Assembly (NCBI GenBank): GCA_037443665.1
Contig: JBBINW010000009.1
Span: 6,182 to 70,181 of the forward strand
Length of the DNA stretch: 64,000 bases
Direction: 5' to 3'
Origin: Betaproteobacteria bacterium
Lineage (GTDB): Bacteria; Pseudomonadota; Gammaproteobacteria; Burkholderiales; Burkholderiaceae_C
This document shows, one piece after another, positions 2,143-55,005 of the stretch. Numbering within the stretch: position 1 is the stretch's first letter; every line of letters starts with the position of its first letter. A program made the translations under genes and the position numbers. Below the pieces are notes generated by a model. That model worked only from the letters and a program-made list of their open reading frames with translations, made no database searches and was not told where the DNA came from.

Positions 2143-3258
2143 GTGACGCTACGCACCATGCCACCGTTCCGCGCCGACCATGTCGGCAGCTTCCTGCGCC
2201 CGAAGTCCCTGCTCGACGCGCGCGCGCAGAAGGCGCGCGGCGAGATCACCGCCGAGCAGCTGCGCGCGGTCGAGGACAAGGCCATCGTCGAGGTCGTCCA
2301 GATGCAGCAGGAGGTGGAGTTGCAGAGCATCACCGACGGCGAGTTCCGTCGTACCTACTTCCACATCGACTTCCTCGACCAGCTCGGCGGTGTCAAGACC
2401 GACATCCCGGTGACGGTAAGGAAGGCCGACGGCACCGAGGAGCTCGCGCCACCGGTGCTGCGCGTGATCGACAAGGTGCGCCACTTGAAGGACATCCAGC
2501 GCGCCGACTTCGAGTTCCTCAAGCGCCAGGTCGCGCCGGGGATGACGCCCAAGGTCACGATTCCCTCGCCGACGATGCTGCATTTCCGCGGCGGCCGCGC
2601 CGGCATTAGCAGGCAGCACTACCCCGAGCTCGATCCCGACTTCTACGACGACGTGGCCACGGCCTACGGCGAGGAACTGCGCTCGCTGTACAACGCCGGC
2701 TGCCGCTACGTGCAGATGGACGACACCAACATGGCCTACCTCTGCGACGAGAAGATGCGCGAGTCGGCGCGCCAGCGCGGCGACGACCCCAACGAGCTGC
2801 CGCACCGCTACGCCACCTTCATCAACAAGGTCGTAGCGCGCAAGCCGCCCGGCATGGTGCTGGCGATGCACCTGTGCCGCGGCAACTTCAAGAGCACCCA
2901 CGCCGCGGCCGGCAACTACGAGCCGGTGGCCGAGGCGCTGCTGGCGGAGATGAACCTCGACGCCTACTTCATGGAGTACGACGACGAACGCAGCGGCGAC
3001 TTCCGCCCGCTGCGCTTCCTGCCCAAGGGCAAAATCGTCGTCCTCGGCCTGGTGACGACCAAGTTCGGCGAGATGGAGAGCAAGGATGACCTCAAGCGCC
3101 GCATCGACGAGGCTGCGAAGTACGCGCCGCTGGAGCAGTTGTGCCTGAGCCCGCAGTGCGGCTTCTCGAGCACCGTGCACGGCAACAACATCGCGGTGGA
3201 GGTGCAGCGCGCCAAACTCCGCCTGGTCGTGGAGACTGCGCGCGAGGTCTGGGGCTGA
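2143..3258 (+). CDS. Cobalamin-independent methionine synthase II family, single catalytic barrel (YxjH-like)
   Basis: AAGGAG RBS before GTG 2143; RADHVGSFLRP, TDGEFRR, zinc ligands in HLCRGN, MEYD and SPQCGF; about 370 aa with no N-terminal barrel. Confidence 0.85.
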   Translation: MTLRTMPPFRADHVGSFLRPKSLLDARAQKARGEITAEQLRAVEDKAIVEVVQMQQEVELQSITDGEFRRTYFHIDFLDQLGGVKTDIPVTVRKADGTEELAPPVLRVIDKVRHLKDIQRADFEFLKRQVAPGMTPKVTIPSPTMLHFRGGRAGISRQHYPELDPDFYDDVATAYGEELRSLYNAGCRYVQMDDTNMAYLCDEKMRESARQRGDDPNELPHRYATFINKVVARKPPGMVLAMHLCRGNFKSTHAAAGNYEPVAEALLAEMNLDAYFMEYDDERSGDFRPLRFLPKGKIVVLGLVTTKFGEMESKDDLKRRIDEAAKYAPLEQLCLSPQCGFSSTVHGNNIAVEVQRAKLRLVVETAREVWG

Positions 3259-3319
3259 CCCGAGAACGCCGACACCCGAACATGCTCGGCAGCGCTGCGC
3301 GTGCACCGACCTGCGGCTC

Positions 3320-3694
3320 TCAGGCGGCGCGGCCGGGGTCAACGCCCTGGGCAGACGTCGAGCGGAGCATCTCGATCACCTGCGCAGCCTGCGGCTGGGT
3401 GCGCCGCACCCGGTCGTCAAAGTGCTGCCGCGCCTGTTCCCCGTAGCGCTGATAGATCTTCCAGCCGACCCCGCCGATCAGCGCCAGCAGGATCAGGCTG
3501 CGCGCGGCGCGGGCGAACGAGACGATCACCGCGATGCCCATGCCGAACGCGACCCACTTCACCCACCAGCGGCCGTCGAGCGTCATCCAGTTGATGAGCC
3601 CGCAAAGGCCGACCACGAAGAGGGCCTTGAACGGCATGAAGACTGCATCGGTGATGTGCTTGACGGGGCGGATGACGAAACGCAGCGGGTTCAT
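3320..3694 (-). CDS. Hypothetical membrane protein, 124 aa, 2-3 TM
   Basis: GAAGGGAG RBS before ATG; GC3-biased codons; hydrophobic segments. Confidence 0.7.
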   Translation of the reverse strand: MNPLRFVIRPVKHITDAVFMPFKALFVVGLCGLINWMTLDGRWWVKWVAFGMGIAVIVSFARAARSLILLALIGGVGWKIYQRYGEQARQHFDDRVRRTQPQAAQVIEMLRSTSAQGVDPGRAA

Positions 3695-3877
3695 GCAGTC
3701 TCCCTTCGTCCGGGGGTGAGGAAAGCGTAGGCCGGCCTCCCGCAGGCCACAAGTCGGCAGCGACGAACTGCGGCCGGCAGGTGCGGATCGACGGCAACGC
3801 CACCCGAGACGCACCCAGCGGCGACAATCGGCCAGCGCCTCGGCCCGAAATTCCAGCCCCTCGACCCTGACTCCGCC

Positions 3878-40002: not shown

Positions 40003-40327
40003 GATGACCGTCGAGGAAGGCGGTCAGCTGGGCCTTGGACAGCGCGCCGACCTGCGTTGCCGCGAGCTTGCCGCCCTTGAACAACATCAGCGTCGGGATG
40101 CCGCGGATGCCGAACTTGGCCGGCACTTCGCGATTCTCATCGACATTCATCTTGGCGATCTGCAGCCGACCGTCGTAATCCTTGGAAACCTGGTCGAGGA
40201 TCGGGGCGATCATCTTGCAGGGTCCGCACCACTCGGCCCAATAATCGACGAGCACGGGTTTGTCGGCGGCGAGCACGTCGGTGCCGAACGAGTCGTCGGT
40301 GATGTGTTTGATCAGTTCGCTGCTCAT
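39998..40327 (-). CDS. trxA: Thioredoxin 1
   Basis: WCGPC, IRGIPTL; upstream of rho. Confidence 0.97.
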
Positions 40328-40430
40328 GAGGGCGTCTCTCGGTTTGCCTGGGCGCGACAAGCGCTCGCAAGGCACAATCATTTTGGCACAACGGCCCTTT
40401 CGGGGCCGGGCTGCGGGACGCATTCTCTTC

Positions 40431-42998
40431 ATGGCATCGGTAGAACAAATCTCGCTCCCGGCGGCCGCGTCTGCCGATGCGCTGTGGTCGGCGCTGGCGC
40501 TGCATGCGCGGGCTTGGCTGGCGCGGCGCGGCCTCGATGCGCGCGACGCCATCGTGCTGTTGCCGTTTTCGGCCCTGCTGGCGCCGGCGCGCTCGGCCTG
40601 GACCCGGCTCGGTGGCTGGCAGCCGCGGGTGGAAACCCCGCTCACGCTGGCCGCCACGCTCGGCCCGCCGCCCGCGGCCGCGCTCGGGCCCTGCAGCGGC
40701 GATCCGACGACGGACCGGCTGGGCGCGGCCATGCTGCTGCGCCGACAGGCCTTCGGCGCTGCCTGGGAGCGGCGCGATGCGGCCGGATTCGGGCGCATGG
40801 TCTGCGCCGTGGTGGAAGCGGCGCAGGTGCTGCGCAGCGCCGCGTTCGCGCGTGCCCCGGCGGCCCGCGATGCGTTCTGGGCCGAGGTCCGCAATGCCAC
40901 CACCGCGGTGGTCGGCCCCGCGGCGACCGAAGCCGCGCTGCTGCGCCTGGCCGTGGAATGGGCGGCAGCCGCGGGCGCACCCGCCACCGACCGCCTGTTC
41001 GCGCACCACCCCGAGGCCTGGCTCGTGCTGCGCCTGGGTGGCCCGGATCCGCTGGCCGAGGCCCTGCTGGGGCACGGCGGCATCCCGTCGCTGCACCTGC
41101 TGGCCGATCCGCCGCCGGACGATCCGTTCGCCCCGGCAGCGGCGGCGTCATCCGCCACGCCGCAGCTGTTTCGTCTGCGTTGCGATGATTTCGAAGCCGA
41201 GGCGCAGGCCAGTGCGGCGACGATCATCGAGGCACTGAACGCCGGGCGTACGCCGGTGGCTCTGGTCGCGCTGGACCGCGAATTGCTTCGCCGCGTGCGT
41301 GCCTTGCTGGCGCGGGCCCGGGTACCGCTGCTCGACGAAACCGGCTGGCTGCTCGATACCACGCGCGCGGCGGCCGACGTCGTGGCCTTGCTGCGTGCGG
41401 CGCTGCCGCAGGCGGGTCAGGACGCGCGGCTCGAATGGCTCAAGACCCTGCCCGGCGTCGCCGCCGTCGACCTCGACGCGCTGGAGGCCGTGTGGCGCGG
41501 CCGGCGACACGTACTGCGGCGCAGCGAGGCCGAGCGCCTTTGGCGCCGGGCGCAGGCCTGGCTGGCGCCGCTGCAGGCGCAGGGTCAGCGCACGCTCGCC
41601 GAGTGGCTGGAAACGCTGCGGGCCTGCCTGCAGGCCGACGCCGGTTTCGAGCGGCTCGCTGCCGACGCCGCCGGCAAGCAGGTGATCGCCGCGCTGGGCC
41701 TGGACGCGGAGCCGCCCTGGCGGCCGCTGGCCGATGCCTGGCGGACCGAACTCGCCGGCCTACTGGCCTGGGTCGAATCGACGCTTGCCGACGCGCCTTT
41801 CCTGCCGTCGCCCGATGCCGGCGCGCAGGTGGTGCTGACCCCGTTGGCCCGTGCGTTCGGGCGGCCGTTCGCGCAGGTCGTGGTCCCGGGGGCCGACGAG
41901 ATCCGGCTCGGGCGCATCGAATCGCCGCCCTCGTTGCTCGGGGACGCGCTGGCGGCGCGCCTCGGGCTGGACCATGCCGCCGCGCGCCGTCAGCGCCAGC
42001 GCCTGGCCCTGGCGCAGTTGCTGCGCATGCCGCACTTGACGCTGCTGCGCCGACGGCGCGACGGCGACGAGCCGGTGGCCGACAGTCCCGACGTCGAGTG
42101 GTTGCTCCTCGCCCGCGAGCGCGCCGGTGCGCCGCCGGTGCGCTTGCTCGACTGGCAGCCGCCCGAGATCGCGGTGCCGCTGCGGCCGGTGGCGCGGCCG
42201 CAGCCGAGTGCGCCCGAAGCACTGCCGGCGGCGATCAGCGCCAGCCAGCTCGAGGCGCTGCGTCAATGCCCGTACCGATTCTTCGCCCGAGCCGTGCTGC
42301 GGCTGGACGAGCCCGAGGAACTCGAGGTGGCGCTCGTCAAGCGCGACTACGGCACCTGGCTGCACGCCGTGCTCCACCACTTCCACAGCCGACGCGACGC
42401 CGGTGTCCCGGACGCGCAGCAGCTGCGCCAGGCTGCCGATGCGGTCACGCTCGAGCAGGGCCTGGACGCCGCCGAGCTGCTGCCGTTCCGCGCCAGCTTC
42501 GACAGCTTCGCGCCCGCGTACCTGGACTGGCTGCGCGTGCGCGAAGGCCGCGGCTGGCGCTGGCAGTCGGGCGAGGCCGACCACCGCCTGACGGCGCCCG
42601 TGCTCGCAGGCCTGCGACTGCAGGGCCGCCTCGACCGGCTCGACCAGGGCCCGGGTGCGGCGACCGAGCTGCTCGACTACAAGACCGGCAGCGCGCAGGC
42701 CCTGGCGCGGCGGGTGAAGGAGCCGCTGGAGGACACCCAGCTCGCCTTCTACGCTGCCTTGCTCGGCGGCGCGGAGACGCTGTCTGCCGCCTACCTGGCG
42801 CTCGACGACGCCGGCGCGCCGCGCGAGATCGAACACCCTGCCGTGCACCACAGTGCGGCGGCGCTGCTGCAGGGCCTGGCGGGCGAATGGGCCAGGCTGC
42901 GGCAGGGGGCGGCGATGCCGGCCCTGGGCGAGGGCCCGGTGTGCGAAACCTGCGAATCCCGCGGGCTGTGCCGACGTGATCACTGGAGCCCGGCATGA
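40431..42998 (+). CDS. addB: AddB-like PD-(D/E)XK nuclease with Fe-S cluster
   Basis: [45 protein letters not shown]. Confidence 0.82.
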
Positions 42999-43112
42999 GG
43001 CTGCGGTGCCCCCCGACGGGAAACGCCAGCATTCGCAGACAGGCGCTGCTCTGGCGAGCGTGCCTGGCCGCGCCGTGAGCGCGCGTCGGCGTCGTTCCTC
43101 GAAAGGACGCCG

Positions 43113-46100
43113 TTGAAGCCGCCCGCCTACCGCATCGACGCCACCCCGGTGGCGGCACCGGCCTTCTACGCCGCCGCATGCGACCCGCAGCGCAGCGTCG
43201 TCGTCGAAGCCTGCGCGGGCGCCGGCAAGACCTGGATCCTGGTCTCGCGCATCCTGCGGGCACTGCTGGCTGGCGTCGAGCCGCAGCAGATCCTGGCCAT
43301 CACCTTCACGCGCAAGGCCGCCGGCGAGATGCGCGCGCGGCTCGACGAATGGCTGCTGGCGTTCTCGGCCGGGCACTGCGACGACTCGACGCGCGTGCAG
43401 GCGCTGTGCGAGCGCGGTCTGAGCGCTGCCGACGCCGCGGCGCTGGCGCCGGCGCTCGGCGCCTTGCACGAACGCCTGCTGCGCGGCGGCCGTGGCGTCG
43501 AGGTGCGCACCTTTCATGGCTGGTTCGCGCAGCTGCTGGCGCACGCGCCACTCTCCCTGCTCGATGCGCTTGGCCTGCCGGCGGCCTACGAGACGGTCGA
43601 GGACGCGAGCGGGCTGCGCCCGGCGCTGATGCGCCGCTTTCACCGGGCGGTGCAGGACGATGCGGCACTGCACGCCGGCTATGCGGCACTGGTGGCGCGC
43701 CACCGCCGCGCCACCTTTCTGCAGTGGCTGGACGCCGCCTGGCGCCGCGGTGGTGAGCTCGCGCGCGCCGACGCGGCCGGCCACGCCGCCGACGCGGTGC
43801 CCGCCGCGGCCGCGCTGTGGCCCGCCTGCCACGGCCTCGACGACCCGGCACTGCTGCTGCAGCTTCCGCCGCTGGCGTCGCAGATCGACGGCCTCGCGCG
43901 CCAGCTCGGCGCCACCGGCAAGGCCAAGGCCGAGGCGGCGGCGCAGGGCCTGCGCGATGCGCTCGAGGCGCCCGCCGCGGCGACCGCGTTCGAGCGGGCC
44001 TGGGCGGCGCTCTTCACGCTCGCCGGCGAGCCGCGCAAGCAACTCGGCGACTCGCCGCTGCAGCAGGCGGTGGTCGATGCGCTGCGCGACGTGCGCGCTA
44101 TGCGGCAGCAGCAGCGCGCGCACGAGGACCATGTCGCGATGCTGCGGCTGGCGCGCGTGCTGCTGGTGGAGTACGCGCAGCTCAAGCGTGATCGCGGGCT
44201 CGTGGACATGGTCGATCTCGAGCACGCCGCCGAGGGGATGCTCGGCGACCGCGAGATCGCGGGCTGGGTCCAGGAGCGGCTCGACCAGCGACTGCGACAG
44301 GTGTTGATCGACGAGTTCCAGGACACCAGTCCGCTGCAGTGGCAGGCGTTGCACGGCTGGCTGCAGTCGTACGCTGGCGCCGGCGGCGGCGCCAGCGGCC
44401 AGCGACCGCCCGCGGTGTTCATCGTCGGCGATCCCAAGCAGAGCATCTACCGCTTCCGCGGCGCCGAGCCGCGCGTGTTCGAGGCTGCGCGCGACTTCGT
44501 CGTCGAGGGGCTGGCAGGGAAGGTCCTGCAATGCGACCACACGCGGCGCAACGCGCCAGCGGTGATCGACGCCATCAACGCCGTCTTCGACGATGCCGCC
44601 CAGCGCGACGGGTGGGGGCCGTTCAGGCCGCACAGCACCGGCTCGCAGGCGGCCGGCGCGGTGCGGCGGCTGCCCGGCGTGCCGCGCGCGCCCAGGGAAA
44701 CCGGTGGCGGGCTGGCGACCGACGTCTGGCGCGATTCGCTGACCCAGCCGCGGATCGAGGCCGAGGTTCGGCGGCGCGCCGAAGAGGCGGCGCAGGTGGC
44801 GGCGGCGGTGGCCGACCTGATCGTCACGCAGGGCCTGGCGCCGGGCGAGGTCATGGTTCTCGCCCGCAAGCGGGTCGTGCTGGCCGCGGTGGCCGAAGCA
44901 CTGGCCCATGCCGGTGTGCCGCATGTCGTGGCCGAGCCGCTGGCCCTGCACCAGTCGCCCGAGGTGCTCGACCTGATCGCCGTTCTCGACGTGCTGGCCT
45001 CGCCGGGGCACGACCTGTCGCTGGCGCGGGCGTTGAAGAGCCCGCTGTTCGGCGCCGGCGACGACGACCTGCTGTGGCTGTCGCAGGCGGTGCGCGAGCC
45101 GGCCGACGTCGGCTTCGGCTGGCTGCACCCTTTGCTGGGTGCGTCCGGGCTGCCTTCGGCCGCGCTGGCGCGCGCGCAGGGGCTGCTCGGCGCCTGGGCG
45201 GCCGCGGCGCCCAGTCTGCCGCCGCACGACCTTCTCGATCGCATCGTCCACGAAGGCGAGCTGCTCCAGCGTCTGGCCGCGGCGGTGCCGCCATCGCGCC
45301 GCGCCGGCGCCTTGCATGCGGTCAACGCCGTGCTGGCCGCGTCGCTGGCGCACCAGGGCGCGCGCGTGCCCAGCCTGTACCGCTTCGTGCGCGAGCTGCG
45401 CGCCGGCCGGGTCGAGGCCAGCGGGCTGGCGCCGGCGGCGGCGGTGCAACTGCTCACGGTGCACGGTGCCAAGGGGCTGGAGGCGCGGGCGGTGATCGTG
45501 GTCGATGCCGACCCCGAGCCGCGCCAGGCCGAGCGCGCGACGCTGCTCGTCGACTGGCCGGTCGAGCAGGCCGCGCCGCGCCGCGTGGCCTTCGTGCGCA
45601 GCGAGTCGGCGCTGCCGCCGTCGCTGGCCGGACCCTGGGCAGCGGAGGTCGCGGCGCGCGAGCGCGAGGAACTCAACGGTCTGTACGTGGCGATGACGCG
45701 GGCCCGCGAATGGCTGGTCTTCAGCCGCACCGAGCCGTCGCGCCGCGCGCCGGGCCAGCCGTGGTGGGATCGGGTGCAGGCGCAGGCGCAGGTCTGGGCG
45801 CCGCCGGCGCGTGCGGCGTTGGCCGGGCAGGCCGACGCCCGGGTGCCGACGCTGCCGGCGCTACACTGGCAGGCGTCGCCCGCGACCGGCGAGCCGGCCG
45901 CGGAGGATCCGGCGGCGGCGCGGCTCGGGCAGGCCGTGCACAGGATGCTTGAATGGGCCGGCCAGCCGGGTGCCGCGCTGCCGCGCGAACACCGGCCGGC
46001 GGCGAGCGCCGCAGCGGCAGCCGCATTCGGCCTGCCGACGACGGCCGCGGCGCGCGTGCTGACTTTGGCCGGGCAGGTACTGGATAGCGGGGAGTGCGCG

Positions 46101-46379
46101 CGCTTCTTCGCCGGTCCGGCCCTGGACTGGGCCGGCAACGAGGTGCCGGTCGTGGCCGACGGCGAGCTCTTGCGCATCGACCGCCTGGTGGCGCTGCGCG
46201 ACAGCGCCGGCGGCAGGACCTGGTGGGTGCTGGACTACAAGCTGCAGAGCACGCCGCAGGCGGTGCCAGCATACCGCGAGCAACTGCAGCGGTATGTCGC
46301 CGCCGTGCAGTCGCTGCAGCCTGGCGACCCCGTGCGCGGCGCCTTCATCACCGGCGGTGGCGCGCTCGTGAGCCTATAG
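43113..46379 (+). CDS. addA: AddA-like UvrD helicase/nuclease
   Basis: ACAGAGKT, TFTRKAA, IDEFQDTS, VGDPKQSIYRFRGA, TVHGAKGLE, YVAMTRA, RIDRL, LDYK. Confidence 0.88.
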   Translation: MKPPAYRIDATPVAAPAFYAAACDPQRSVVVEACAGAGKTWILVSRILRALLAGVEPQQILAITFTRKAAGEMRARLDEWLLAFSAGHCDDSTRVQALCERGLSAADAAALAPALGALHERLLRGGRGVEVRTFHGWFAQLLAHAPLSLLDALGLPAAYETVEDASGLRPALMRRFHRAVQDDAALHAGYAALVARHRRATFLQWLDAAWRRGGELARADAAGHAADAVPAAAALWPACHGLDDPALLLQLPPLASQIDGLARQLGATGKAKAEAAAQGLRDALEAPAAATAFERAWAALFTLAGEPRKQLGDSPLQQAVVDALRDVRAMRQQQRAHEDHVAMLRLARVLLVEYAQLKRDRGLVDMVDLEHAAEGMLGDREIAGWVQERLDQRLRQVLIDEFQDTSPLQWQALHGWLQSYAGAGGGASGQRPPAVFIVGDPKQSIYRFRGAEPRVFEAARDFVVEGLAGKVLQCDHTRRNAPAVIDAINAVFDDAAQRDGWGPFRPHSTGSQAAGAVRRLPGVPRAPRETGGGLATDVWRDSLTQPRIEAEVRRRAEEAAQVAAAVADLIVTQGLAPGEVMVLARKRVVLAAVAEALAHAGVPHVVAEPLALHQSPEVLDLIAVLDVLASPGHDLSLARALKSPLFGAGDDDLLWLSQAVREPADVGFGWLHPLLGASGLPSAALARAQGLLGAWAAAAPSLPPHDLLDRIVHEGELLQRLAAAVPPSRRAGALHAVNAVLAASLAHQGARVPSLYRFVRELRAGRVEASGLAPAAAVQLLTVHGAKGLEARAVIVVDADPEPRQAERATLLVDWPVEQAAPRRVAFVRSESALPPSLAGPWAAEVAAREREELNGLYVAMTRAREWLVFSRTEPSRRAPGQPWWDRVQAQAQVWAPPARAALAGQADARVPTLPALHWQASPATGEPAAEDPAAARLGQAVHRMLEWAGQPGAALPREHRPAASAAAAAAFGLPTTAAARVLTLAGQVLDSGECARFFAGPALDWAGNEVPVVADGELLRIDRLVALRDSAGGRTWWVLDYKLQSTPQAVPAYREQLQRYVAAVQSLQPGDPVRGAFITGGGALVSL

Positions 46380-46467
46380 CTCGCCTGCGCCCGGCGCCGA
46401 AGTGCCGCGCGATTCGGCCACTGTTCGCACCTTCGGCGGGCCTCGCTCCGGGGTTCAATCCTCGTCC

Positions 46468-48246
46468 ATGGCTGCCCCGAGCACAGACCCCACCGCGCCG
46501 CCGCGCGCCGCGGCCGTGCGCTGGTTCGGGCGGCTCCAGCTGCTGCGCCTGCTCGGCAAGAGTGACCGCACGATGGCTTGGCGGGTGGCGGATCCGCACA
46601 GCGGCCGGGAGCTGATGCTGGTACTGCCGCGCGTGCAGCCGGCCGACGCGGCAGCCGTGGAGCGCTGGCAGCAAGCCGTGCGCCGGGCGTCGCGGCTGAA
46701 CCATCCGCAGATTGCGGCGGTGGTCGCGAGCGGCGTGCAGGACGGCTGGCCGTATGCGGCCTACGACCCGGGCGACGCCGCGTCGATCACCGAGCGGCTG
46801 CCCAGCCAGGGGCTTGCGGGCCCGGATGCTGCTGCCTGGACGACCCAGCTGCTGCAGGGGCTGGCCTTCGCCCACGAAGCGGGCGTGGCCCACCACGACC
46901 TGCAGCCCTACCTGGTGCTGGTCGGCGACAACGGCGACGTGCGCGTGGCGGGTCTGGCCGTCGCCGCCGAGCTCGCCGATGCGGACGACGGGGCGCGCGA
47001 CCGCGACGCCCTCGGTTCGGCCGCCCTGCGCTCGCAGCGCGCCGCCGCCGAGCGCGACGTGCTCGCCGCGGGCGTGCTGCTGCAGCACATGCTCGCCGGC
47101 CAGCCGGCGCTCGACGAGGCCGACGTCGGCCGCGTCATCGCCCGTCTGCCGCCGCAGGGGCGCGAGGTCGTGCGCCTGCCCTGGGCCACTGCGCAGCCGA
47201 TCGCCGAGCCGCTGCGTGCCATCGCCAACCGCGCCACCGACCGCCAGGAGCGCCAGCGTTACCGCAGCGCACGCACGCTGCTGCGCGCGCTCGAAGGCTG
47301 GCTGCGCACCGAGGCGGATGCCGCCGGTGGGCCGTTGGCGCTGCTGTCCGACCGCCTGCGCCACGCCGGCGTGCTGCCCTCGTCGCCAGGGTTGGCGGCG
47401 CGGGTGGCGCGGCTGGCCCTGATGGAGGGCCAGCGCACGAACGAGCTGGCCGAAATAGTGCTCGAGGATCTCGCGCTTTCCTTCGAGATGCTGCGACTGG
47501 TCAACACGGCTCAGGTGCGCGGCGCGCAGGTCTCGGGCAACGGGCCGGTGCTGACGGTGCGGCGCGCGATCGCGATGATGGGGCTGGACGGCGTGCGTCG
47601 CGCCGCACTCGCGCTGCGCGACTGGCCGGGGCCGCTGGGCGACGCGGGTGCGGCCGAGCTGCAGCGGCTGATCGAACGCTGCAAGCGCGCCGGCTGCGCC
47701 GCGCTCATCCTGCGCCCGCCGGGCTACGACGGCGAGGTGGTGTACCTGATCACGATGTTGCAGAGCCTCGGACGCCTGGTCGTCCACTACCACTTCGCCG
47801 ACGAGGCGCAGCAGATCCGGCGCCTGATGCAGCCGGCGCCGCCGGCGCGTGAAGGCGAGCCCGAGGAACCTGGCATGAGCGAGGAAAGTGCGGCCTTCGC
47901 GGTGCTCGGCGCCGATGTCGAGGCGCTGGGTGCCGCGGTGGCCCGCCACTGGGGCCTGGACGATGGTGTCCTGTCGCTGATCCGTCGCCATCCAACGGTC
48001 ACCGCCGTGCGCAGCGCCGACAACGACGACGAGATGCTGCGCTGCGTGGCAAGTTGCGCCAACGAGACGATCGATGCGCTGGCCTTGCCGGCGCAACGCG
48101 TTCAGGGCGCGCTGCAGCGCGTGGCGCAGCGCTACGGCCGGGTGCTCGGTGTCGGGCTGCGCGACCTGCAGGCCGCCTTGGAGGGCGAGCCGGCCAGTCC
48201 GATCGCCTACACGATGCCGGCACCGCTGGACGGGGAAGCGGCATGA
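46468..48246 (+). CDS. Pseudokinase (degenerate Hanks-type) plus HDOD domain protein
   Basis: Kinase-like N-terminus with HHDLQPYLVL and no VAIK Lys or DFG; HDOD segment EDLALSFEMLRLVN...VRRAIAMMG. Confidence 0.8.
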   Translation: MAAPSTDPTAPPRAAAVRWFGRLQLLRLLGKSDRTMAWRVADPHSGRELMLVLPRVQPADAAAVERWQQAVRRASRLNHPQIAAVVASGVQDGWPYAAYDPGDAASITERLPSQGLAGPDAAAWTTQLLQGLAFAHEAGVAHHDLQPYLVLVGDNGDVRVAGLAVAAELADADDGARDRDALGSAALRSQRAAAERDVLAAGVLLQHMLAGQPALDEADVGRVIARLPPQGREVVRLPWATAQPIAEPLRAIANRATDRQERQRYRSARTLLRALEGWLRTEADAAGGPLALLSDRLRHAGVLPSSPGLAARVARLALMEGQRTNELAEIVLEDLALSFEMLRLVNTAQVRGAQVSGNGPVLTVRRAIAMMGLDGVRRAALALRDWPGPLGDAGAAELQRLIERCKRAGCAALILRPPGYDGEVVYLITMLQSLGRLVVHYHFADEAQQIRRLMQPAPPAREGEPEEPGMSEESAAFAVLGADVEALGAAVARHWGLDDGVLSLIRRHPTVTAVRSADNDDEMLRCVASCANETIDALALPAQRVQGALQRVAQRYGRVLGVGLRDLQAALEGEPASPIAYTMPAPLDGEAA

Positions 48247-50639
48247 CCACCGAGGTGGCACCGCGGCCCAGGTTCGGGCAGCTCGGGCGCTTCGAGCTGC
48301 TGCGCGAGCTCGGTCGTGGCGCGCAGGCCCGGGTCTGGCTGGCGCACGACCCGCGGCTGGATCGCGAGGTGGCGCTGAAGCTGCTGGACGCGGCAGCCGA
48401 CTCGCTGGCGGTCAGCGAATGGCTGCACGAGGCGCGCGCGGTCAGCCGCCTGACCCACCCCAACATCGTGCCTGTGTTCGAGGCCGACGAGCACGACGGC
48501 CAGCCCTACCTCGTGTTCGAGTACGTCGAAGGCCCGACGCTGTCGCAGTCGCGCCGCGGCAAACCGCCGATGCCGCCGCGCGAGGCCGTAGCGTTGCTGT
48601 TGGGCGTGCTTGACGCACTGGCCGCGGCGCACGACCAGGGGCTGGTGCACCGCGACCTCAAGCCGTCCAACATCCTGCTCGGCAGCGACGGCCGGGCGCG
48701 GGTGATGGACTTCGGCATCGCGGCGCGGGTGGCCCACGGCGACCGCCGCGGTCGTCCGGCGACTGACATCGCCGATGGCCGCATCGTGGGCACGCCGGGC
48801 TACATCTCGCCCGAAGCCGCGCGCGGCGAGGTCCCGGTGCCTGCGATGGACGTCTTCGCTGCCGGCGTGATGCTCGGCGAACTCCTCAGCGGCGGTCCGC
48901 TGCTGCGCGAGACCGATCCCTACCGGGCCATCGAGCGCATCCAGCGCGAGGACCTGGAGCTATCGTCGGCGGTGAAGGTCGATGCCACGTTGCGCGGCAT
49001 CGTGCAGCGCGCGCTGGCGCGCGACGTGCACGCACGCTACGACAGCGCGCGCGCGATGCACGCAGCGCTCAGCGCCTGGGCGAAACCGGCGGAGGTTGCG
49101 CCCGCGCAGGCCGGAAACGGCCATGCGACGCTGGACTTCCTGCTGCGCCGCATGCGCCACAAAACCGACTTTCCGGCGCTATCGGCTTCGGTCGTGCGGA
49201 TCCAGCGCGTGGCGACCTCGGAGACGGTGTCGCTGGCCAGCCTGGCCGAAGAGATCCTCAAGGACGTGGCGCTGACCAACAAGCTGCTGCGTATGGTCAA
49301 CACCGCGCATTTCACCGCCGTGGCCGGGGGCGGCATCGCCACCGTCTCGCGCGCGGTGGCGCTGGTCGGCTTCGCCGGCATCCGCAACATGGCCTTGTCG
49401 CTGGTGCTGCTCGAGCACATGAACGACAAGGGGCACGCGGCGCAGCTCAAGGACGAGTTCCTGCGAGCGCTGATGGCCGGCACGCTTGCCGACGAGCTCT
49501 CGCCGCTGGCGCGCGAGGGGGAGGAAGCGTTTCTCGGCGCGATGTTCCAGAACCTCGGCCGCCTGCTGTCGGAGTTCTACTTTCCCGAAGAAGCGCTGCA
49601 GATCCGGCAGCAGCTCGGCGGCGGAGACCCGACGCCGGCGCAGCGCGACGCCGCGGCGCGGCGCGTGCTGGGCATCAGCCTCGAGGATCTCGGCGCCGGC
49701 GTGGCCAAGGCCTGGGGCCTGCCCGACACCCTGCAGCGCGCGCTGCGGCCACCCGCCGGCGACGTGCCCACGCGGGCGGTCGCCCGCGGCGCCGATGGCG
49801 GCGTCGAGCGCCTGCGCTGGCTGGGGCGCAGCGCAAACGCACTGGCCGATGCCTGGCTCGTCAGCGACCCCGCGGCCCAGGCCGCCGCCGTCGAAGCCGC
49901 CGCCGAGCTCTACGCGCCGGCGCTGGGCCTCACGGTAGCGCAGGTCACGACGGCCGCGAACAGCGCGCGCATCCGCGTCGGCCAGCTCGCGCAGGCGATG
50001 GGGCTGCGCCCCTCCCGGGACGCTCCGGCGCGGCGGCTGGTCGACACCGTGCTGCCCACCGGCCTCGCAGCCGGCAGCGCGGCCCTGCCCGATGTGACCC
50101 TTGTGGTCGCGCGGCCGGGGCAGCCAGCGCAGGCGCAGCTGGCGCGGGCGCTGCAGGAGGCACGCGCCGCCGTGGCCGGCAACCGGCTGCGCCTGAACGA
50201 ACTGCTGAGCCTGGTGCTCGAAACGATCCAGCGCGCGCTGGACCTTCGCAGCGTCGTGCTGTGCCTGCGCGAGCCGGCCAGCGGCTGTCTGGTGGGCCGC
50301 CTTGGCCTCGGACCGGGCGGGGCCGAAGCCAGCGCCGTTATCCGCTTCGCGCCCGACGGCGCCGCGGTCGGCGACCTGTTCGCCGTGGTCTGTGCCAAGG
50401 GCGCCGACCTGATGATCGCCGACAGTGCGGCGGTGGCCAACCGGCTGCCGGCATGGTTCCGCGAACGCGTCAACGCGCCCACCTTCCTGCTGCTGCCGCT
50501 GATGCTCAAGGGCGCGCCGATCGGACTGATCTATGCCGACAAGGCGCAGGCAGGAACGATCGCACTGGGCGACGAGGAACTGAAGCTGCTGCGCTCGCTG
50601 CGCGACCTGGTGGCCGCGGCCTTCGGCAAGGGAGGGTGA
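48243..50639 (+). CDS. Ser/Thr protein kinase plus HDOD plus C-terminal GAF-like domain
   Basis: LGRGAQA, VALK, HRDLKPSN, DFG, GTPGYISPE; HDOD KDVALTNKLLRMVN; C-terminal LLPLMLKGAPIGLIYAD. Confidence 0.88.
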   Translation: MTTEVAPRPRFGQLGRFELLRELGRGAQARVWLAHDPRLDREVALKLLDAAADSLAVSEWLHEARAVSRLTHPNIVPVFEADEHDGQPYLVFEYVEGPTLSQSRRGKPPMPPREAVALLLGVLDALAAAHDQGLVHRDLKPSNILLGSDGRARVMDFGIAARVAHGDRRGRPATDIADGRIVGTPGYISPEAARGEVPVPAMDVFAAGVMLGELLSGGPLLRETDPYRAIERIQREDLELSSAVKVDATLRGIVQRALARDVHARYDSARAMHAALSAWAKPAEVAPAQAGNGHATLDFLLRRMRHKTDFPALSASVVRIQRVATSETVSLASLAEEILKDVALTNKLLRMVNTAHFTAVAGGGIATVSRAVALVGFAGIRNMALSLVLLEHMNDKGHAAQLKDEFLRALMAGTLADELSPLAREGEEAFLGAMFQNLGRLLSEFYFPEEALQIRQQLGGGDPTPAQRDAAARRVLGISLEDLGAGVAKAWGLPDTLQRALRPPAGDVPTRAVARGADGGVERLRWLGRSANALADAWLVSDPAAQAAAVEAAAELYAPALGLTVAQVTTAANSARIRVGQLAQAMGLRPSRDAPARRLVDTVLPTGLAAGSAALPDVTLVVARPGQPAQAQLARALQEARAAVAGNRLRLNELLSLVLETIQRALDLRSVVLCLREPASGCLVGRLGLGPGGAEASAVIRFAPDGAAVGDLFAVVCAKGADLMIADSAAVANRLPAWFRERVNAPTFLLLPLMLKGAPIGLIYADKAQAGTIALGDEELKLLRSLRDLVAAAFGKGG

Positions 50640-50734
50640 CGAGCCTTACCCCCGGCACTGGTCGCAACGCTTGGGGCTGCTTGGTTCCCCACCTGACCCG
50701 GTTGGGCGCGCTTCCATGCGGGGAGGCCCGTCGC
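50635..50734 (-). ncRNA. ffs: Signal recognition particle RNA (4.5S)
   Basis: Domain IV-like core GTCAGGTGGGGAACCAAGCAGCC; 5' GGCGACGGGCCT pairs with 3' AGGCTCGTCACC; TACAAT -10 at 50739-44. Confidence 0.88.
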
Positions 50735-50771
50735 CGCGGATTGTAGGCGAGGGGGCCGTGCGCCCCTGCCG

Positions 50772-52016
50772 TCAGGCGTAGACGTAGGCGCGTTCGAAGG
50801 GGTAGTCGCACATCGCGCCCGGCGGGTCGCTGGCCGAAGGGCGGCCGTCGGGGTGGGCGGCCAGCGTCTGGTGCAGCGCCATCCAGCCGCGCTCGAACCC
50901 GAGCGCGCTGACCGCCAGGTACAGCCGGTAGGCACGCAGCGTCTTGGCGCTGCAAAGTGCGGCGGCGCGGTCCAGCTGTGCCTCGAGCGCATCCGACCAG
51001 GCCCATAGCGTGCGTGCGTAGTGGGGGCGCAGGTTTTCAGTGTCCAGGCCTTCGAGCCCGGCCTCGGCCATCACGCGAAGCACGTGCGAGACGTGTAGCA
51101 ACTCGCCGCCGGGAAAGATGTAGCGCTCGACGAAGTCGCCAATGCCCGCGCCGAGCTGCGTGTTGCGCGTTCCCCCGGCCGTGATGCCATGGTTGAGCAG
51201 CAGACCGCCGGGCCGCAACAGGCACCGGATCTTGGCGAAGTACGCCGGCAGCCGCGCCCGCCCGACGTGCTCGAACATGCCGACCGAGGCGATCTTGTCG
51301 TACGGCGCGTCCTCGGGCAGCTCGCGGTAGTCGAGCAGATGCATCTGCACCCGGTCGCCCAGCCCACGCTGCGCGACCAGGGCGTTTACATGGGCGTGCT
51401 GGTTCTTCGACAGCGTGATGCCGGTGGCATGCACGCCGTAGTGCTCGGCCGCCCACAGCAGCAGTGCGCCCCAGCCGGCACCGATGTCGAGGAAACGTTC
51501 GCCGGGCCGCAGCCGCAGCTTGCGGCATACGAGGTCGAGCTTCGCTTCCTGGGCCTGCACCAGCGTCGTCGCACCGGCGCGCCAGTAGGCGCAGGAATAG
51601 ACACGCCGCGGGTCCAGCCACAGGGCATAGAAGTCGTCGGAAACGTCGTAGTGGTGCTGCACCTGGCGCGCGTCGGCCGCGGGCCGGTGCCGCCAGCGCG
51701 AGGCCAGCGCGTTGCGCAGCGGATGGGCGTGGGCGGTTGTGGGCTCCTCGTCAAGGAGCGCGGCGGCGATGCCCGCCACCTGGCGCATCGGCCCGTCGAG
51801 CAGCACGCGGCCTTCGACGATCTCGGTGGCCAAGCGGCCGATGCGGCCATTCGCGAGGTATCGCAGCGATAGCGTGTGCGGCAGCTGCAGCTGCACCGGC
51901 GCGTCGGCGATTCCGATGCGTTGCCCGCCGGGCAGCACCACCTCCAGCACCGCTGCCGCTTCGGCTGGCAGTGTGGCCAGCCGCTTGCGCACGAGGTTTT
52001 CCCAGATCCCACCCAT
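50772..52016 (-). CDS. cfa: Cyclopropane-fatty-acyl-phospholipid synthase family methyltransferase
   Basis: HHYDVSDDFY, YSCAYW, LDIGAGWG, SVGMFEHVG, YIFPGG. Confidence 0.88.
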   Translation of the reverse strand: MGGIWENLVRKRLATLPAEAAAVLEVVLPGGQRIGIADAPVQLQLPHTLSLRYLANGRIGRLATEIVEGRVLLDGPMRQVAGIAAALLDEEPTTAHAHPLRNALASRWRHRPAADARQVQHHYDVSDDFYALWLDPRRVYSCAYWRAGATTLVQAQEAKLDLVCRKLRLRPGERFLDIGAGWGALLLWAAEHYGVHATGITLSKNQHAHVNALVAQRGLGDRVQMHLLDYRELPEDAPYDKIASVGMFEHVGRARLPAYFAKIRCLLRPGGLLLNHGITAGGTRNTQLGAGIGDFVERYIFPGGELLHVSHVLRVMAEAGLEGLDTENLRPHYARTLWAWSDALEAQLDRAAALCSAKTLRAYRLYLAVSALGFERGWMALHQTLAAHPDGRPSASDPPGAMCDYPFERAYVYA

Positions 52017-52073
52017 GAACTCTTGCGTCCGACTGTACGCAATCGGCGCGCCACCCGCCAGAGGCGGAAGACC

Positions 52074-53189
52074 TCAGCGCAACTGCAGCGCCTCGCCCTC
52101 GAAGCGGATGCCCAGCGGCTCGATGAGCAACTGCTTGGGTCCGGCCTCGACCTGCCCGGCGGCCCACGCCGGGACGCCGCAGCCTCGCGCGACGGCGATC
52201 GTGCGGTCGGCATCCGCGGCGGCCACGAACAGCGCAAAGCCGGCCCCCATGTTCAGCGTGCCGTAGGCCTCGGCGTCGTCGAGCTGCGCCTGCCGCTGGA
52301 TGAAGCGCAGCACCGGTGGTACCGGCGGCACGGTGTGGATGCGGTAGCTCAGCGCTTTGGGGTGGCGCAGCAGCTTGCGCCAGCCGTGGCCGGTGATGTT
52401 GGCGGCGTAATGGACCTGCACGCCGGCCGCCCACAGCGCCTCGGTGACGGGGGAGTACAGCGTCGTCGGGGCGAGTAGCGCGGCGCCATAGCGCTGTCCC
52501 GGAGCGACGTCGCTCAGGTAGCCCTGCGGCAGGCGGTCGGCTAGCTTGCGCGCCAGGCTCAGGCCGTTGGCGTGGATGCCGCTGGAGGCGAGCAGCACGA
52601 TCGCGTCGCCGGGGGCCAGCCGCTCACCCAGGCTCAGGCGCGCCTTCGGGCTGATCAGGCCCGTGCATGAGGCGGCGAGGTCGATGCGCCCGGCCTCGAC
52701 GATGCCGGCCAGCGCCGGCGTCTCGCCGCCGCCCCAGGCCACGCCGCAGACGTCGCAGGCAGCTTTCCAGCCCTGCACCAGCGTCTGCGCCCGTTCCGCG
52801 TCGGCGAACCAGTCGCTGCCGCCCGCGGCCCAGTAGGCCTGCACGACCAGCGGCGTGGCGCCGACCGTGGCCAGGTCGTTGACCGCCATCGCGATCGTGT
52901 CCTGTGCGATCGCGGCGTAGAAGCACTCGCCGGTCAGGCGCTGCATCTCGTCGGCCACCAGTGCCTTGCTGCCCAGGCACTCGACGATGCTCGCGAGGTA
53001 GAACGGGCCGACGTCGACCACGTACGCCGACTCGCCACGCGAGGCGGCGACTTCGCTCAGGCCGTGCGCAGCCAGGTGCGCGCCGGTGGCCGCCGCGGCG
53101 CGCTGGGCGGCGATCTTCAGCGGGTCGATGAGGTCGTACTGCACCCCCGCCTGCGCGTAGCTCAACGGGGTGTTCGGGGGCTGCGTCAT
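52074..53189 (-). CDS. Divergent AIR synthase (PurM-like) protein
   Basis: YAQAGV, AMAVNDL, GGETP, GIHANGLSLARK, ANITGHG, LNMGAG; VECLGSK replaces the usual TDGVGTK. Confidence 0.8.
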   Translation of the reverse strand: MTQPPNTPLSYAQAGVQYDLIDPLKIAAQRAAAATGAHLAAHGLSEVAASRGESAYVVDVGPFYLASIVECLGSKALVADEMQRLTGECFYAAIAQDTIAMAVNDLATVGATPLVVQAYWAAGGSDWFADAERAQTLVQGWKAACDVCGVAWGGGETPALAGIVEAGRIDLAASCTGLISPKARLSLGERLAPGDAIVLLASSGIHANGLSLARKLADRLPQGYLSDVAPGQRYGAALLAPTTLYSPVTEALWAAGVQVHYAANITGHGWRKLLRHPKALSYRIHTVPPVPPVLRFIQRQAQLDDAEAYGTLNMGAGFALFVAAADADRTIAVARGCGVPAWAAGQVEAGPKQLLIEPLGIRFEGEALQLR

Positions 53190-53227
53190 GGCGAACGATT
53201 ATCCCTTCCAACCGTAGAATCGAATCG

Positions 53228-53305
53228 ATGGTCCTCCCGCTGCCCGCATCCTCCACCAGCCTCGCGGCCCCGCCGGTGGCGCCCCGCGGCGCCGGGCACA
53301 TCTGA
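53228..53305 (+). CDS. Candidate 25-aa leaderless uORF coupled to dnaX
   Basis: TAGAAT-N7-ATG; TGA overlaps the dnaX ATG (TGATG). Confidence 0.35.
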   Translation: MVLPLPASSTSLAAPPVAPRGAGHI

Positions 53306-55005
53306 TGGCCTACGTCGTCCTGGCTCGCAAGTACCGGCCGCGCCGCTTCGCCGAGATGGTGGGGCAGGAGCACGTCGTGCAGGCGCTGACCAACGCGCTG
53401 CAGCAGCAGCGCCTGCACCACGCGTACCTGTTCACGGGTACGCGCGGGATCGGCAAGACCACGGTTTCGCGCATCCTGGCCAAGAGCCTGAACTGCACGG
53501 GTGCCGACGGCACTGGCGGCATCACCGCCGAGCCCTGCGGCGTGTGCCAGGCCTGCACCGAGATAGATGCCGACCGTTACCTGGACTACATCGAACTCGA
53601 CGCCGCCAGCAACCGCAGCATCGACGAGATCCGCGACCTGATCGAACGTGCCGCCTACAAGCCGGGCATCGGGCGCTTCAAGGTCTTCATGATCGACGAA
53701 GCGCACCAGCTCACCAAGGACGCGTTCAACGCACTGCTGAAGACGCTTGAGGAGCCGCCCGACTACCTGAAGTTCGTCCTCGCCACCACCGACCCCGAGA
53801 AGATGCTGCCGACGGTGCTCAGCCGCTGCCTGCAGTTCAACCTGCGGCCGATGGCGCCCGAGACCGTGCGCGCGCACCTTCAGCAGGTGCTGGCGGCCGA
53901 GGGCGTGGGCTTCGACGACGGCGCGCTGCGCCTGCTCGCCCGCGCCGCGCGCGGCTCGATGCGCGACGCGCTCTCGCTCACCGATCAGGCCATTGCCTAC
54001 GGTGGCGGACAGCTCGACGAGGCGGTGGTGCGCAGCATGCTGGGTAGCGTCGATCGCGGCCACGCGCGCGCCGTCGTCCAGGCGCTGGCCGCGCGCGACG
54101 GCCCGGCGGTGCTGGCCGCCGTTGACGGACTGCGCCAGCTCGGGTTGTCGGCCGCTGGGCTGCTCGAGGAGATCGCCCGCCTGCTGCAGCAGATGGCGGT
54201 GGCACAGGCGGTGCGCGGTGCGCTCGACGCCCAGGACCCCGAGACCGCCGACGCGCTGGCGCTGGCGCCGCTGCTGGCCGCCGACGAGATGCAGCTGCTC
54301 TACAGCATCGTGCTGCATGGCCGCGAGGAACTCGGCCTGATGAGCGACGAATACGGCGCGCTGACGATGGTGCTGCTGCGCTTCCTGGCGTTTCCGGCGC
54401 AGGGCGGCGCGGCGCTCGTGGCCGAGGCTCCGGTGCCCGGACGCGAGCTGCGCGAGCCACGGGCGGCGCCCCTGCGCGCCGCGCCGCCGCCGGCGATCAC
54501 CCTGCCCACCGGCGCCGACGCGCGGTCACGGCCGAGCGCCTTGCCGCCGCCACGGCCGGCCCCGCCTGTGGCTTCGGTGTCGGCCCCGCCGGGCGCCACC
54601 GATCCCGAACTCGGCGCGCGCTGGCACCGCCTCGTCAAGCGCCTGTGCGAAGAGGGTGCGCTGACCGCGCTGGCGCGCGAACTGGCGACCCAGGGTGGCC
54701 TGCGCGCGATCGACGAGGGCGCAACGCCGCCGCGCTGGCATCTGGTGGTCGAGCGCGAGAGCCTGCGCAGTGCGCCGCTGCGCGACAAGCTCGCCGCCGC
54801 GCTCGCCGCCGAACTCGGTCAAGCGATCGAAATCGAGATCGAACCCGGTGTGCCCGACGACTCACCCGCCCGCCGCGATGCGGTCGAACGCCAGCGCCGC
54901 CAGGCCGAGGCCGAAGCGGCGATCCGGGCCGACCCCGTGGTGCGCGAACTACTGGCCCAGTTCAAGGGCGCGCGCATCGTGCCCGGCTCGATCAAACCCC
55001 TCTGA
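53305..55005 (+). CDS. dnaX: DNA polymerase III subunit gamma/tau
   Basis: [16 protein letters not shown]4 zinc motif, [16 protein letters not shown]. Confidence 0.97.

Follow-up and report, generated by a model that had tools for sequence, protein, structure and literature searches.

A conserved HDOD-linked pseudokinase family of Burkholderiales, usually encoded next to a predicted active kinase paralogue

RESULTS

Two overlapping genes encode paralogous kinase-HDOD proteins

The DNA analyzed here (hereafter the window) is a stretch of 64,000 nucleotides from a Betaproteobacteria bacterium (contig JBBINW010000009.1 of assembly GCA_037443665.1, positions 6,182 to 70,181, forward strand), with a G+C content of ~72%. 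It contains two adjacent genes, named o1 and o2 in this work, which encode a pseudokinase-HDOD protein and a Ser/Thr kinase-HDOD-GAF protein, respectively. Their features in window coordinates are as follows.

46468–48246, plus strand: o1, open frame of 592 amino acids from an ATG, cytoplasmic pseudokinase-HDOD protein
46519–47337, plus strand: o1 pseudokinase domain, residues ~18–290 (motif counts, AlphaFold2, Foldseek, ratio of non-synonymous to synonymous substitution rates (dN/dS))
47374–47991, plus strand: o1 HDOD domain, residues 303–508 (Pfam PF08668, 65.9 bits, cut-off 22.9)
48025–48183, plus strand: o1 C-terminal three-helix extension, residues 520–572 (AlphaFold2 helices 520–537, 542–560 and 564–572)
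48232–48246, plus strand: coupling junction, with a Shine-Dalgarno-like purine-rich GGGGAAG (48232–48238) inside the o1 tail, followed by ATGA (48243–48246)
48243–50639, plus strand: o2, open frame of 798 amino acids, cytoplasmic Ser/Thr kinase-HDOD-GAF protein
48282–49097, plus strand: o2 kinase domain, residues 14–285 (Pfam Pkinase and similarity to StkP/PknB)
49173–49745, plus strand: o2 HDOD domain, residues 311–501 (Pfam, 106.6 bits, cut-off 22.9)
50124–50636, plus strand: o2 C-terminal GAF domain, residues ~628–798 (Pfam GAF and helix/sheet fold in AlphaFold2)

An in-frame GTG is also present at 46402, upstream of the o1 ATG. The two proteins align with 34% identity over 544 residues (E = 7e-67), which identifies them as paralogues; the alignment spans the kinase domain, the HDOD domain and the helical region that follows, extending in BLASTP to o1 residue 537. 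The C-terminal three-helix extension is common to both, with the o2 helices modeled by AlphaFold2 at residues 519–537, 543–561 and 565–585. The Pfam Pkinase model (PF00069, cut-off 31.7) matched residues 17–273 of o2 with 137.4 bits and residues 74–265 of o1 with 37.5 bits. The C-terminus of o2 matched GAF (PF01590) at residues 651–793 with 27.6 bits (cut-off 22.4), and a GAF or GAF_2 annotation is precomputed in many o2 homologues.

No transmembrane-like segment was found in o1 or o2. The highest 19-residue Kyte-Doolittle window scored 1.93 and corresponds to a conserved core helix of the o2 HDOD domain that contains Arg and Asn, and neither N-terminus resembles a signal peptide. A preliminary description of this locus, made from the sequence, had proposed paralogous kinase-plus-HDOD proteins overlapping at ATGA (48243–48246), a GAF-like C-terminus in o2 and the lack of transmembrane segments and signal peptides in both; the reading frames, Pfam matches, alignment and hydropathy profiles agree with it on each of these points. 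Databases name these proteins only 'HDOD domain-containing protein' or 'serine/threonine protein kinase', and NCBIfam contained no family-specific model for either, with generic kinase matches only, far below their cut-offs.

The o1 family lacks the catalytic residues that o2 retains

The catalytic motifs were placed by aligning o1 and o2 to StkP/PknB and to each other.

Glycine-rich loop: GRGAQA in o2; GKSDRT in o1
β3 Lys: K46 (VALK) in o2; V52 (LMLV) in o1
αC Glu: E63 in o2; A70 in o1
Catalytic loop: HRDLKPSN (H136-R-D138, K140, N143) in o2; HHDLQPYL in o1
DFG: D156-F-G in o2; AGL in o1, with G162 at the Asp position
APE-type motif: GTPGYISPE (SPE191) in o2; no APE-like motif in o1

The o2 sequence matched StkP and PknB with E-values of ~1e-40 (4e-40 for PknB), and the canonical catalytic residues are each present in 63–65 of 65 o2 orthologues. 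By sequence, o2 is a Hanks-type Ser/Thr kinase with all catalytic residues present, and is predicted to be active. The similarity of o1 to StkP was detected by phmmer with an E-value of 5e-15. Its catalytic loop keeps H142 and D144, with Gln (Q146) in place of the Lys and Leu (L149) in place of the Asn. Among 81 o1 orthologues, the β3 Lys position is occupied by Val in 78, Met in two and Thr in one, and never by Lys; Glu occurs at the αC position in only two; all 81 carry Gly where the DFG Asp would be; and the catalytic-loop Asn position is variable. The family has invariant residues of its own, namely S32, W38, P54, R55, H142, D144 and D197 (81/81 each), along with the near-invariant or partly conserved G30 (78), K31 (79), R34 (69), T35 (63 Thr and 18 Ser) and Q146 (79). 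The earlier reading that o2 keeps, and o1 has lost, the Hanks motifs was therefore exact, and the same pattern extends to all orthologues counted.

From an alignment of 52 sequences, AlphaFold2 modeled o1 with a mean predicted local distance difference test score (pLDDT) of 89.2 and a predicted template-modeling score (pTM) of 0.86, and the pLDDT exceeds 90 over most of the pseudokinase domain. In view of this pTM, the pseudokinase and HDOD domains are predicted to form one rigid body. The top Foldseek matches of the model in the PDB were Stk1 (9YMT), PknA (4OW8) and PknI (5M06/5M07), with target-normalized template-modeling scores of 0.66–0.72, and the MviN pseudokinase (3UQC, 3OTV) was also among the matches. 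Pfam, AlphaFold2 and Foldseek are thus consistent with the kinase fold that the preliminary description had assigned to the N-terminus of o1. Because it combines a kinase fold with the absence of the VAIK Lys and the DFG Asp, o1 is a pseudokinase by the standard definition and is predicted to be inactive.

The o2 model has a pLDDT of 81.5 with well-folded domains, but a pTM of only 0.43. In its GAF domain, helix-flanked strands at residues 670–676, 683–689, 747–755 and 758–767 were modeled with pLDDT above 90, whereas the activation loop, the initial HDOD helices (324–375) and the pre-GAF linker (604–626) were modeled with low confidence. Residues 324–375 (window ~49212–49367) have pLDDT values of 36–55, and the equivalent region of o1 is modeled confidently. 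This segment could become ordered only on partner binding, or the low confidence could reflect the shallower alignment (34 sequences).

The pseudokinase is old and under purifying selection

For the window compared with loci L001 and L002, respectively, dN/dS was as follows.

o1 pseudokinase domain: 0.18 and 0.31
o1 HDOD domain: 0.13 and 0.13
o2 kinase domain: 0.105 and 0.23
o2 HDOD domain: 0.13 and 0.21

Across 64 genomes, the mean identity to the window is 67.8% for the o1 pseudokinase domain versus 73.7% for the o2 kinase domain, and in 57 of the 64 the full-length o1 protein is the better conserved of the two. These substitution ratios and identities indicate that o1 is an old protein under purifying selection rather than a decaying duplicate.

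We searched 1.84 billion cluster representatives exhaustively and retrieved 296 clusters at E ≤ 1e-30. Fifty full-length family representatives at 50% clustering, of 530–650 amino acids, were of o1 type; none of them has the β3 Lys or the DFG Asp, and nearly all retain H-x-D, G-[KR]-S, W and P-R. A further 22 were of o2 type, mostly 760–840 amino acids long, with canonical catalytic residues almost throughout, and one more N-terminally truncated protein falls with the o2 type in the tree. The neighbor-joining tree splits cleanly into o1-type and o2-type branches. This split, together with the uniform degeneration of the o1 type, indicates that the duplication and the catalytic loss came before the family diversified, to an identity of ~30–35% between its members.

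The gene pair and its overlap are widely conserved

We scanned one genome per species for o1 orthologues and judged adjacency at the locus only. The 80 loci obtained, with o1 orthologues at 57–85% identity, all belong to Burkholderiales of the Rubrivivax, Leptothrix and AAP65 type (family Sphaerotilaceae). Among them are cultured bacteria, including the R. gelatinosus strains DSM 1709 and IM 151, R. rivuli and Rubrivivax sp. RP6-9. The nearest genome, an uncultured betaproteobacterial metagenome-assembled genome, has an o1 orthologue of 85% identity.

In 74 of the 80 loci, the next gene downstream of o1 is an o2 orthologue. In 57 of these 74 pairs the stop and start codons share a 4-nt NTGA overlap, with ATG as the start in 18, GTG in 20 and TTG in 19; CTG does not occur as the overlapping start in any of them, even though C is the most frequent base at a G+C content of ~72%. 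Short spacers separate the genes in the remaining 17 pairs, and a G-rich patch lies 8–13 nt upstream of the overlap in most loci. The pair still overlaps (as GTGA) in locus L089, where o2 has diverged to 47% identity. The flanks vary: only about half of the loci have an AddA-like helicase gene upstream, and a minority have cfa downstream. Judging from the conserved overlap and the Shine-Dalgarno-like sequence inside o1, o1 and o2 are predicted to be a translationally coupled pair. The co-occurrence expected in the preliminary description is thus found in this survey, both as adjacency and as overlap.

A conserved element precedes o1

46398–46459, plus strand: o1 upstream region, with an imperfect inverted repeat and a −10-like hexamer (comparative alignment)

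The 70 nt before o1 are conserved across the 80 aligned loci whatever gene lies upstream. In the window, the inverted repeat reads CGAAG/CTG...CTGTTCG (46398–46427), and the palindrome consensus across loci is CGAAC(T/A)G-N15-C(T/A)GTTCG. The −10-like TTCAAT (46454–46459) ends 8 nt before the o1 ATG, a distance of 8–9 nt across loci. The pattern T[TGC][CGA]AAT followed by 6–10 nt and ATG occurred in 70 of the 80 loci versus 0.2 in shuffles, and GAAC-N18-24-GTTC in 32 versus 0.5. Conservation of these motifs regardless of the upstream gene indicates that o1–o2 forms its own transcription unit, and suggests that the palindrome and hexamer serve as operator and promoter. No Shine-Dalgarno sequence precedes the o1 ATG, so the o1 transcript is probably leaderless or nearly so. 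A strict consensus promoter scan of 46000–51000 returned no promoter, and one chance-level terminator-like site inside o2.

HDOD domains and candidate interfaces

Neither protein has the HD metal dyad, whose place is taken by Q-S in o1 (LQSLGRL) and Q-N in o2 (FQNLGRL), the dyad position having been located from the o1/o2 alignment and from the alignment of o2 to MmoQ and 3MEM. The closest solved structures to the o2 HDOD domain are MmoQ (3P3Q, 3LJX) and the YbaK-HDOD proteins 3MEM and 9QZK; the same position is H-N in 3MEM and A-D in MmoQ. The di-iron HDOD structure 3HC1 has a metal-binding His/Asp set, which is a feature of some HDOD members (PMC12075610). As the HD dyad is absent, a 3HC1-like metal-dependent pocket is unlikely in o1 and o2.

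Residues R16, L39 and E80 of o2 occupy the positions of R10, L33 and D76 in PknB and are conserved in 64–65 of 65 orthologues. In o1, the Arg (R22) is kept in 74 of 81 orthologues and an acidic residue (E/D87) in 79, and the Leu position is Ser or Thr. Mutations of D76 and L33 break the back-to-back interface in PknB and StkP (PMC13434768). PknB and StkP are membrane PASTA kinases that homodimerize; o2 has conserved residues at the PknB interface positions, and a heterotypic version of this dimer is a proposal made here. In a mirror-tree analysis of 21 loci with AddA as control, evolutionary distances of o1 and o2 domains were correlated (partial r 0.62–0.76 versus 0.74–0.77 within a protein), and for the HDOD/helical modules the correlation between the proteins was as strong as that within them (partial r 0.76). 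With 21 loci and an imperfect phylogenetic control, this lends weak support to an o1–o2 partnership.

Genomic setting

50635–50732, minus strand: signal recognition particle (SRP) RNA (ffs), convergent to o2 (Rfam RF00169, 64.3 bits, E = 1e-12)

The gene order in the window is rho, AddB-like, AddA-like, o1, o2, SRP RNA, cfa, an AIRS-family gene and dnaX, a neighborhood of housekeeping genes. No PP2C phosphatase, FHA, GGDEF/EAL or flagellar genes were found near o1 and o2. A link of the HDOD domains to motility or c-di-GMP, raised in the preliminary description, finds no support at this locus, given the missing HD dyad and the housekeeping neighborhood. The SRP RNA shares 5 nt with the end of o2, including its stop codon, and is the sole Rfam match in 42000–54000, with no riboswitch or leader detected there.

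Between rho and o1 (40260–46379) lie the genes of an AddB-like PD-(D/E)XK nuclease and an AddA/UvrD-like helicase. In some more distant relatives trxA is directly upstream of o1, with rho beyond it in one. In o2-less relatives, an element with the same out-of-frame translation as the SRP RNA region follows directly after o1, as seen in L071. Locus L088 carries a lone o2-type kinase-HDOD gene (2918–3766, minus strand) divergent from genes for a RIO1-like atypical kinase and a trypsin-like protease. A subsurface metagenome is the only sequencing run that contains the whole stretch.

DISCUSSION

To our knowledge, bacterial pseudokinases are recognized but almost unstudied experimentally, with MviN as the sole well-understood case, and HDOD is a widespread signaling domain for which we know of no established mechanism. 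MviN acts as a phospho-dependent scaffold. In eukaryotes, a selected dead paralogue works with an active kinase in JAK JH2-JH1, STRAD-LKB1, HER3-EGFR, KSR-RAF and the plant tandem kinase proteins. These pairs, which have no HDOD or GAF domain, provide the model for allosteric or scaffold regulation; o1 and o2, by comparison, are separate polypeptides from overlapping genes, and we infer their interaction. Kinase/pseudokinase pairing is thus familiar in animals and plants, and for an HDOD protein family in bacteria we found no description of it. A literature search returned no paper combining 'HDOD' and 'pseudokinase'; the sole paper found for HDOD and 'threonine kinase' concerns aspartate-less receiver domains, and neither a bacterial Ser/Thr kinase atlas, its supplements aside, nor a pseudokinase review mentions HDOD.

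Seven bacterial pseudokinase families have been named: ActPs1–3, GLW, CP1, DYD and DLHK (PMC12599244; bioRxiv 10.1101/2025.01.12.632604). Like o1, they are conserved Ser/Thr pseudokinases with family-specific substitutions and no VAIK Lys, and several are proteobacterial. Unlike all seven, o1 combines a kept HxD, a lost Asn, Gly for the DFG Asp and a G-K-S-x-R-T loop, and none of the seven has been described with an HDOD domain or a coupled active paralogue. The kept HxD alone already separates o1 from GLW and the ActPs families. Membership in three of them was considered and rejected. GLW proteins have GLW for HRD, a poly-Leu/Trp β3 strand and a C-terminal transmembrane segment (PMC12599244), whereas o1 has H-H-D and no such segment. 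DLHK proteins, although they too keep the Asp, retain the Asn, have an Arg-rich pocket and are linked to DEAD-like helicase or DNA2 domains (PMC12599244), whereas o1 has L149 and is fused to HDOD. The ActPs3/MviN proteins are actinobacterial and lack both the HRD Asp and the DFG Asp and are fused to the MviN membrane domain, whereas o1 is betaproteobacterial and soluble and keeps the HRD Asp. CP1 differs from o1 in its links to COG3899, FhlA or PAS domains, and DYD in its β3 Arg and its occurrence in Gram-positives. Judged by the published descriptions of these families, o1 represents an undescribed HDOD-linked bacterial pseudokinase family, usually adjoining an active-type paralogue.

Among characterized systems, M. 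tuberculosis MviN (Rv3910) with PknB and FhaA resembles the role proposed for o1, in that a Hanks-fold pseudokinase acts non-catalytically alongside an active PknB-type kinase. MviN differs in being a membrane protein with a lipid II flippase-like fusion, in lacking the HRD Asp and in not being encoded beside a kinase paralogue (PMC12599244). The o1 protein is soluble, fused to HDOD and from a proteobacterium, keeps HxD, and its gene overlaps that of an active-type paralogue. A second point of comparison is SadB, an HDOD protein without most of the metal-binding histidines that acts as a protein adaptor independently of the pocket (PMC12075610). P. fluorescens SadB is reported to bind c-di-GMP (PMC6543031), whereas no such binding was found with P. 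aeruginosa SadB (PMC12075610). Both o1 and o2 resemble SadB in the loss of metal-binding residues, here the HD dyad, and differ in the N-terminal partner of the HDOD domain, which is a kinase or pseudokinase here, YbaK in SadB and a receiver in MmoQ.

We propose that o1 and o2 form a two-gene operon whose products assemble into a complex in which o1 modulates, or is modified by, o2; the complex and the regulation are inferred, and we regard this reading as evenly poised. The overlap of the o2 start codon with the o1 stop codon would cause both proteins to be translated in a coupled manner from a single mRNA, next to each other and at a constant ratio. The o2 protein would be the active kinase, its output probably under the control of a small ligand that the C-terminal GAF domain senses, and o1 would be the degenerate copy, retained by purifying selection since before the family diversified. 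Both may assemble into a hetero-oligomer through their homologous HDOD/helical modules, through the PknB-type N-lobe back-to-back surface, or through both, and the role of o1 toward o2 would then be non-catalytic, that of an activator, a brake, a scaffold or a phospho-acceptor. A more specific version, in which the pair would be the first bacterial counterpart of the eukaryotic allosteric pairs, with o1 switching o2 on or off through the N-lobe and/or HDOD interface, the GAF domain as small-molecule input and the HDOD domain as heterodimerization device, seems possible but is held more tentatively.

Several observations weigh against the proposed complex. The o1 gene stands alone in at least 4–6 of the 80 loci, namely in L044 and L076, with an AIRS-family gene and dnaX coming directly next, in L071 and L049, and probably also in L007 and L072, in which little downstream sequence is available. 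It also stands alone in the distant lineages L083 and L086, the latter with AIRS, dnaX, ybaB and recR next. Conversely, o2-type genes occur without an adjacent o1 in L084, L085 and L088, and the gene upstream of o2 in L087 is unrelated. In a Rubrivivax metagenome-assembled genome (L079, 7812–9374), the gene after o1 keeps the ATGA but encodes only an HDOD-GAF protein of 520 amino acids that begins at the HDOD linker, the entire kinase domain being cleanly missing; at least one lineage thus manages without o2 kinase activity at the locus. Amphibiibacter pelophylacis (L081, 4158–7773) has, after trxA, two adjacent, slightly overlapping pseudokinase-HDOD genes (617 and 590 amino acids) and no active kinase at the locus, and Pfam misses the kinase domain in both proteins. 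At the candidate N-lobe interface, the window's own o1 has Ala at position 87 (46726–46728), which is acidic in 79 of 81 orthologues. No RNA runs containing the stretch were found, the matching runs being subsurface and freshwater metagenome DNA. The L079 and Amphibiibacter variants indicate that the recurrent unit is a tandem of HDOD paralogues in which an active kinase is usual but not obligatory, and the recurrence of such tandems (pseudokinase with kinase, with pseudokinase or with HDOD-GAF) is what suggests the HDOD domain as a heterodimerization device. Of the heterodimeric signaling module put forward in the preliminary description, the pseudokinase status, paralogy, conserved overlap and co-occurrence therefore stand, whereas the pairing is not obligatory.

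These exceptions bear directly on an alternative that we consider unlikely but deserving of weight, namely that o1 is an independent HDOD adaptor or scaffold like SadB, whose dead kinase fold binds another client, and that the adjacency reflects an old tandem duplication and shared regulation. The o1 family is indeed broader than the pair, with several lineages lacking o2 at the same locus (trxA/rho ... o1 ... ffs, AIRS, dnaX, ybaB, recR). It is on average more conserved than o2 and is modeled as a rigid two-domain unit (pTM 0.86), and SadB sets the precedent of an HDOD protein as a ligand-independent proteolysis adaptor (PMC12075610). However, an overlap with a selected start codon in 57 of 74 pairs and adjacency in 74 of 80 loci exceed what co-regulation needs, the evolutionary distances of o1 and o2 domains correlate, and residues at the PknB dimer-interface positions are retained in both proteins. 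It is also conceivable, though we hold it distinctly improbable, that o1 is not dead but an atypical nucleotide-binding protein or enzyme using relocated basic residues, with K31 and R34 lying in the glycine-rich loop and R55 following β3, along with the kept H142-x-D144, which would be compatible with pairing. H142 and D144 are present in all 81 orthologues and in 50 of 52 family members, among which a basic residue occupies position 31 in 47, S32 is kept in 49 and R55 in 48. Precedents exist in WNK, POMK, ULK4 and the proposed DLHK family: ULK4 and DLHK are described as binding ATP independently of metal through extra basic residues, and POMK as using a glycine-loop Lys (PMC12599244). Yet the β3 Lys, αC Glu, Asn and DFG Asp of o1 are jointly missing, the DFG Asp position is invariantly Gly, no metal ligand is left, and R34 occurs in only 27 of the 52 family members.

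Two other explanations fare worse. That the pair might be an anti-phage defense kinase system of the PD-T4-6, Stk2 or MADS type is suggested by matches of both proteins to the PADLOC PD-T4-6, mad6 and MkoA kinase models and to NCBIfam MAD6. These matches cover the generic kinase domain only (150 bits against a cut-off of 460 for NCBIfam MAD6), the locus is vertically inherited throughout a bacterial family among housekeeping genes (rho, AddAB-like, ffs, cfa, dnaX) rather than placed in a variable island, and it has no other defense-type neighbors; we therefore reject this possibility as very remote. The loss of catalytic motifs would also be expected if o1 were a decaying, non-functional duplicate of o2, an idea that its conservation refutes almost beyond doubt: 81 genomes have an uninterrupted frame, dN/dS values are 0.13–0.31, identity across the family is 57–85% and above that of o2, and the protein has invariant residues of its own and a confidently predicted fold.

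The locus offers a clean, soluble two-protein system in cultivable and genetically tractable bacteria such as Rubrivivax gelatinosus. With its G-K-S-x-R-T, P-R and H-x-D-x-Q signature, the o1 family also lends itself to tests for atypical binding of nucleotides or other ligands. If o1 and o2 do form the proposed complex, allosteric kinase/pseudokinase pairing would have arisen in bacteria as well, and the HDOD domain would gain a role, in paralogue pairing or as an adaptor.

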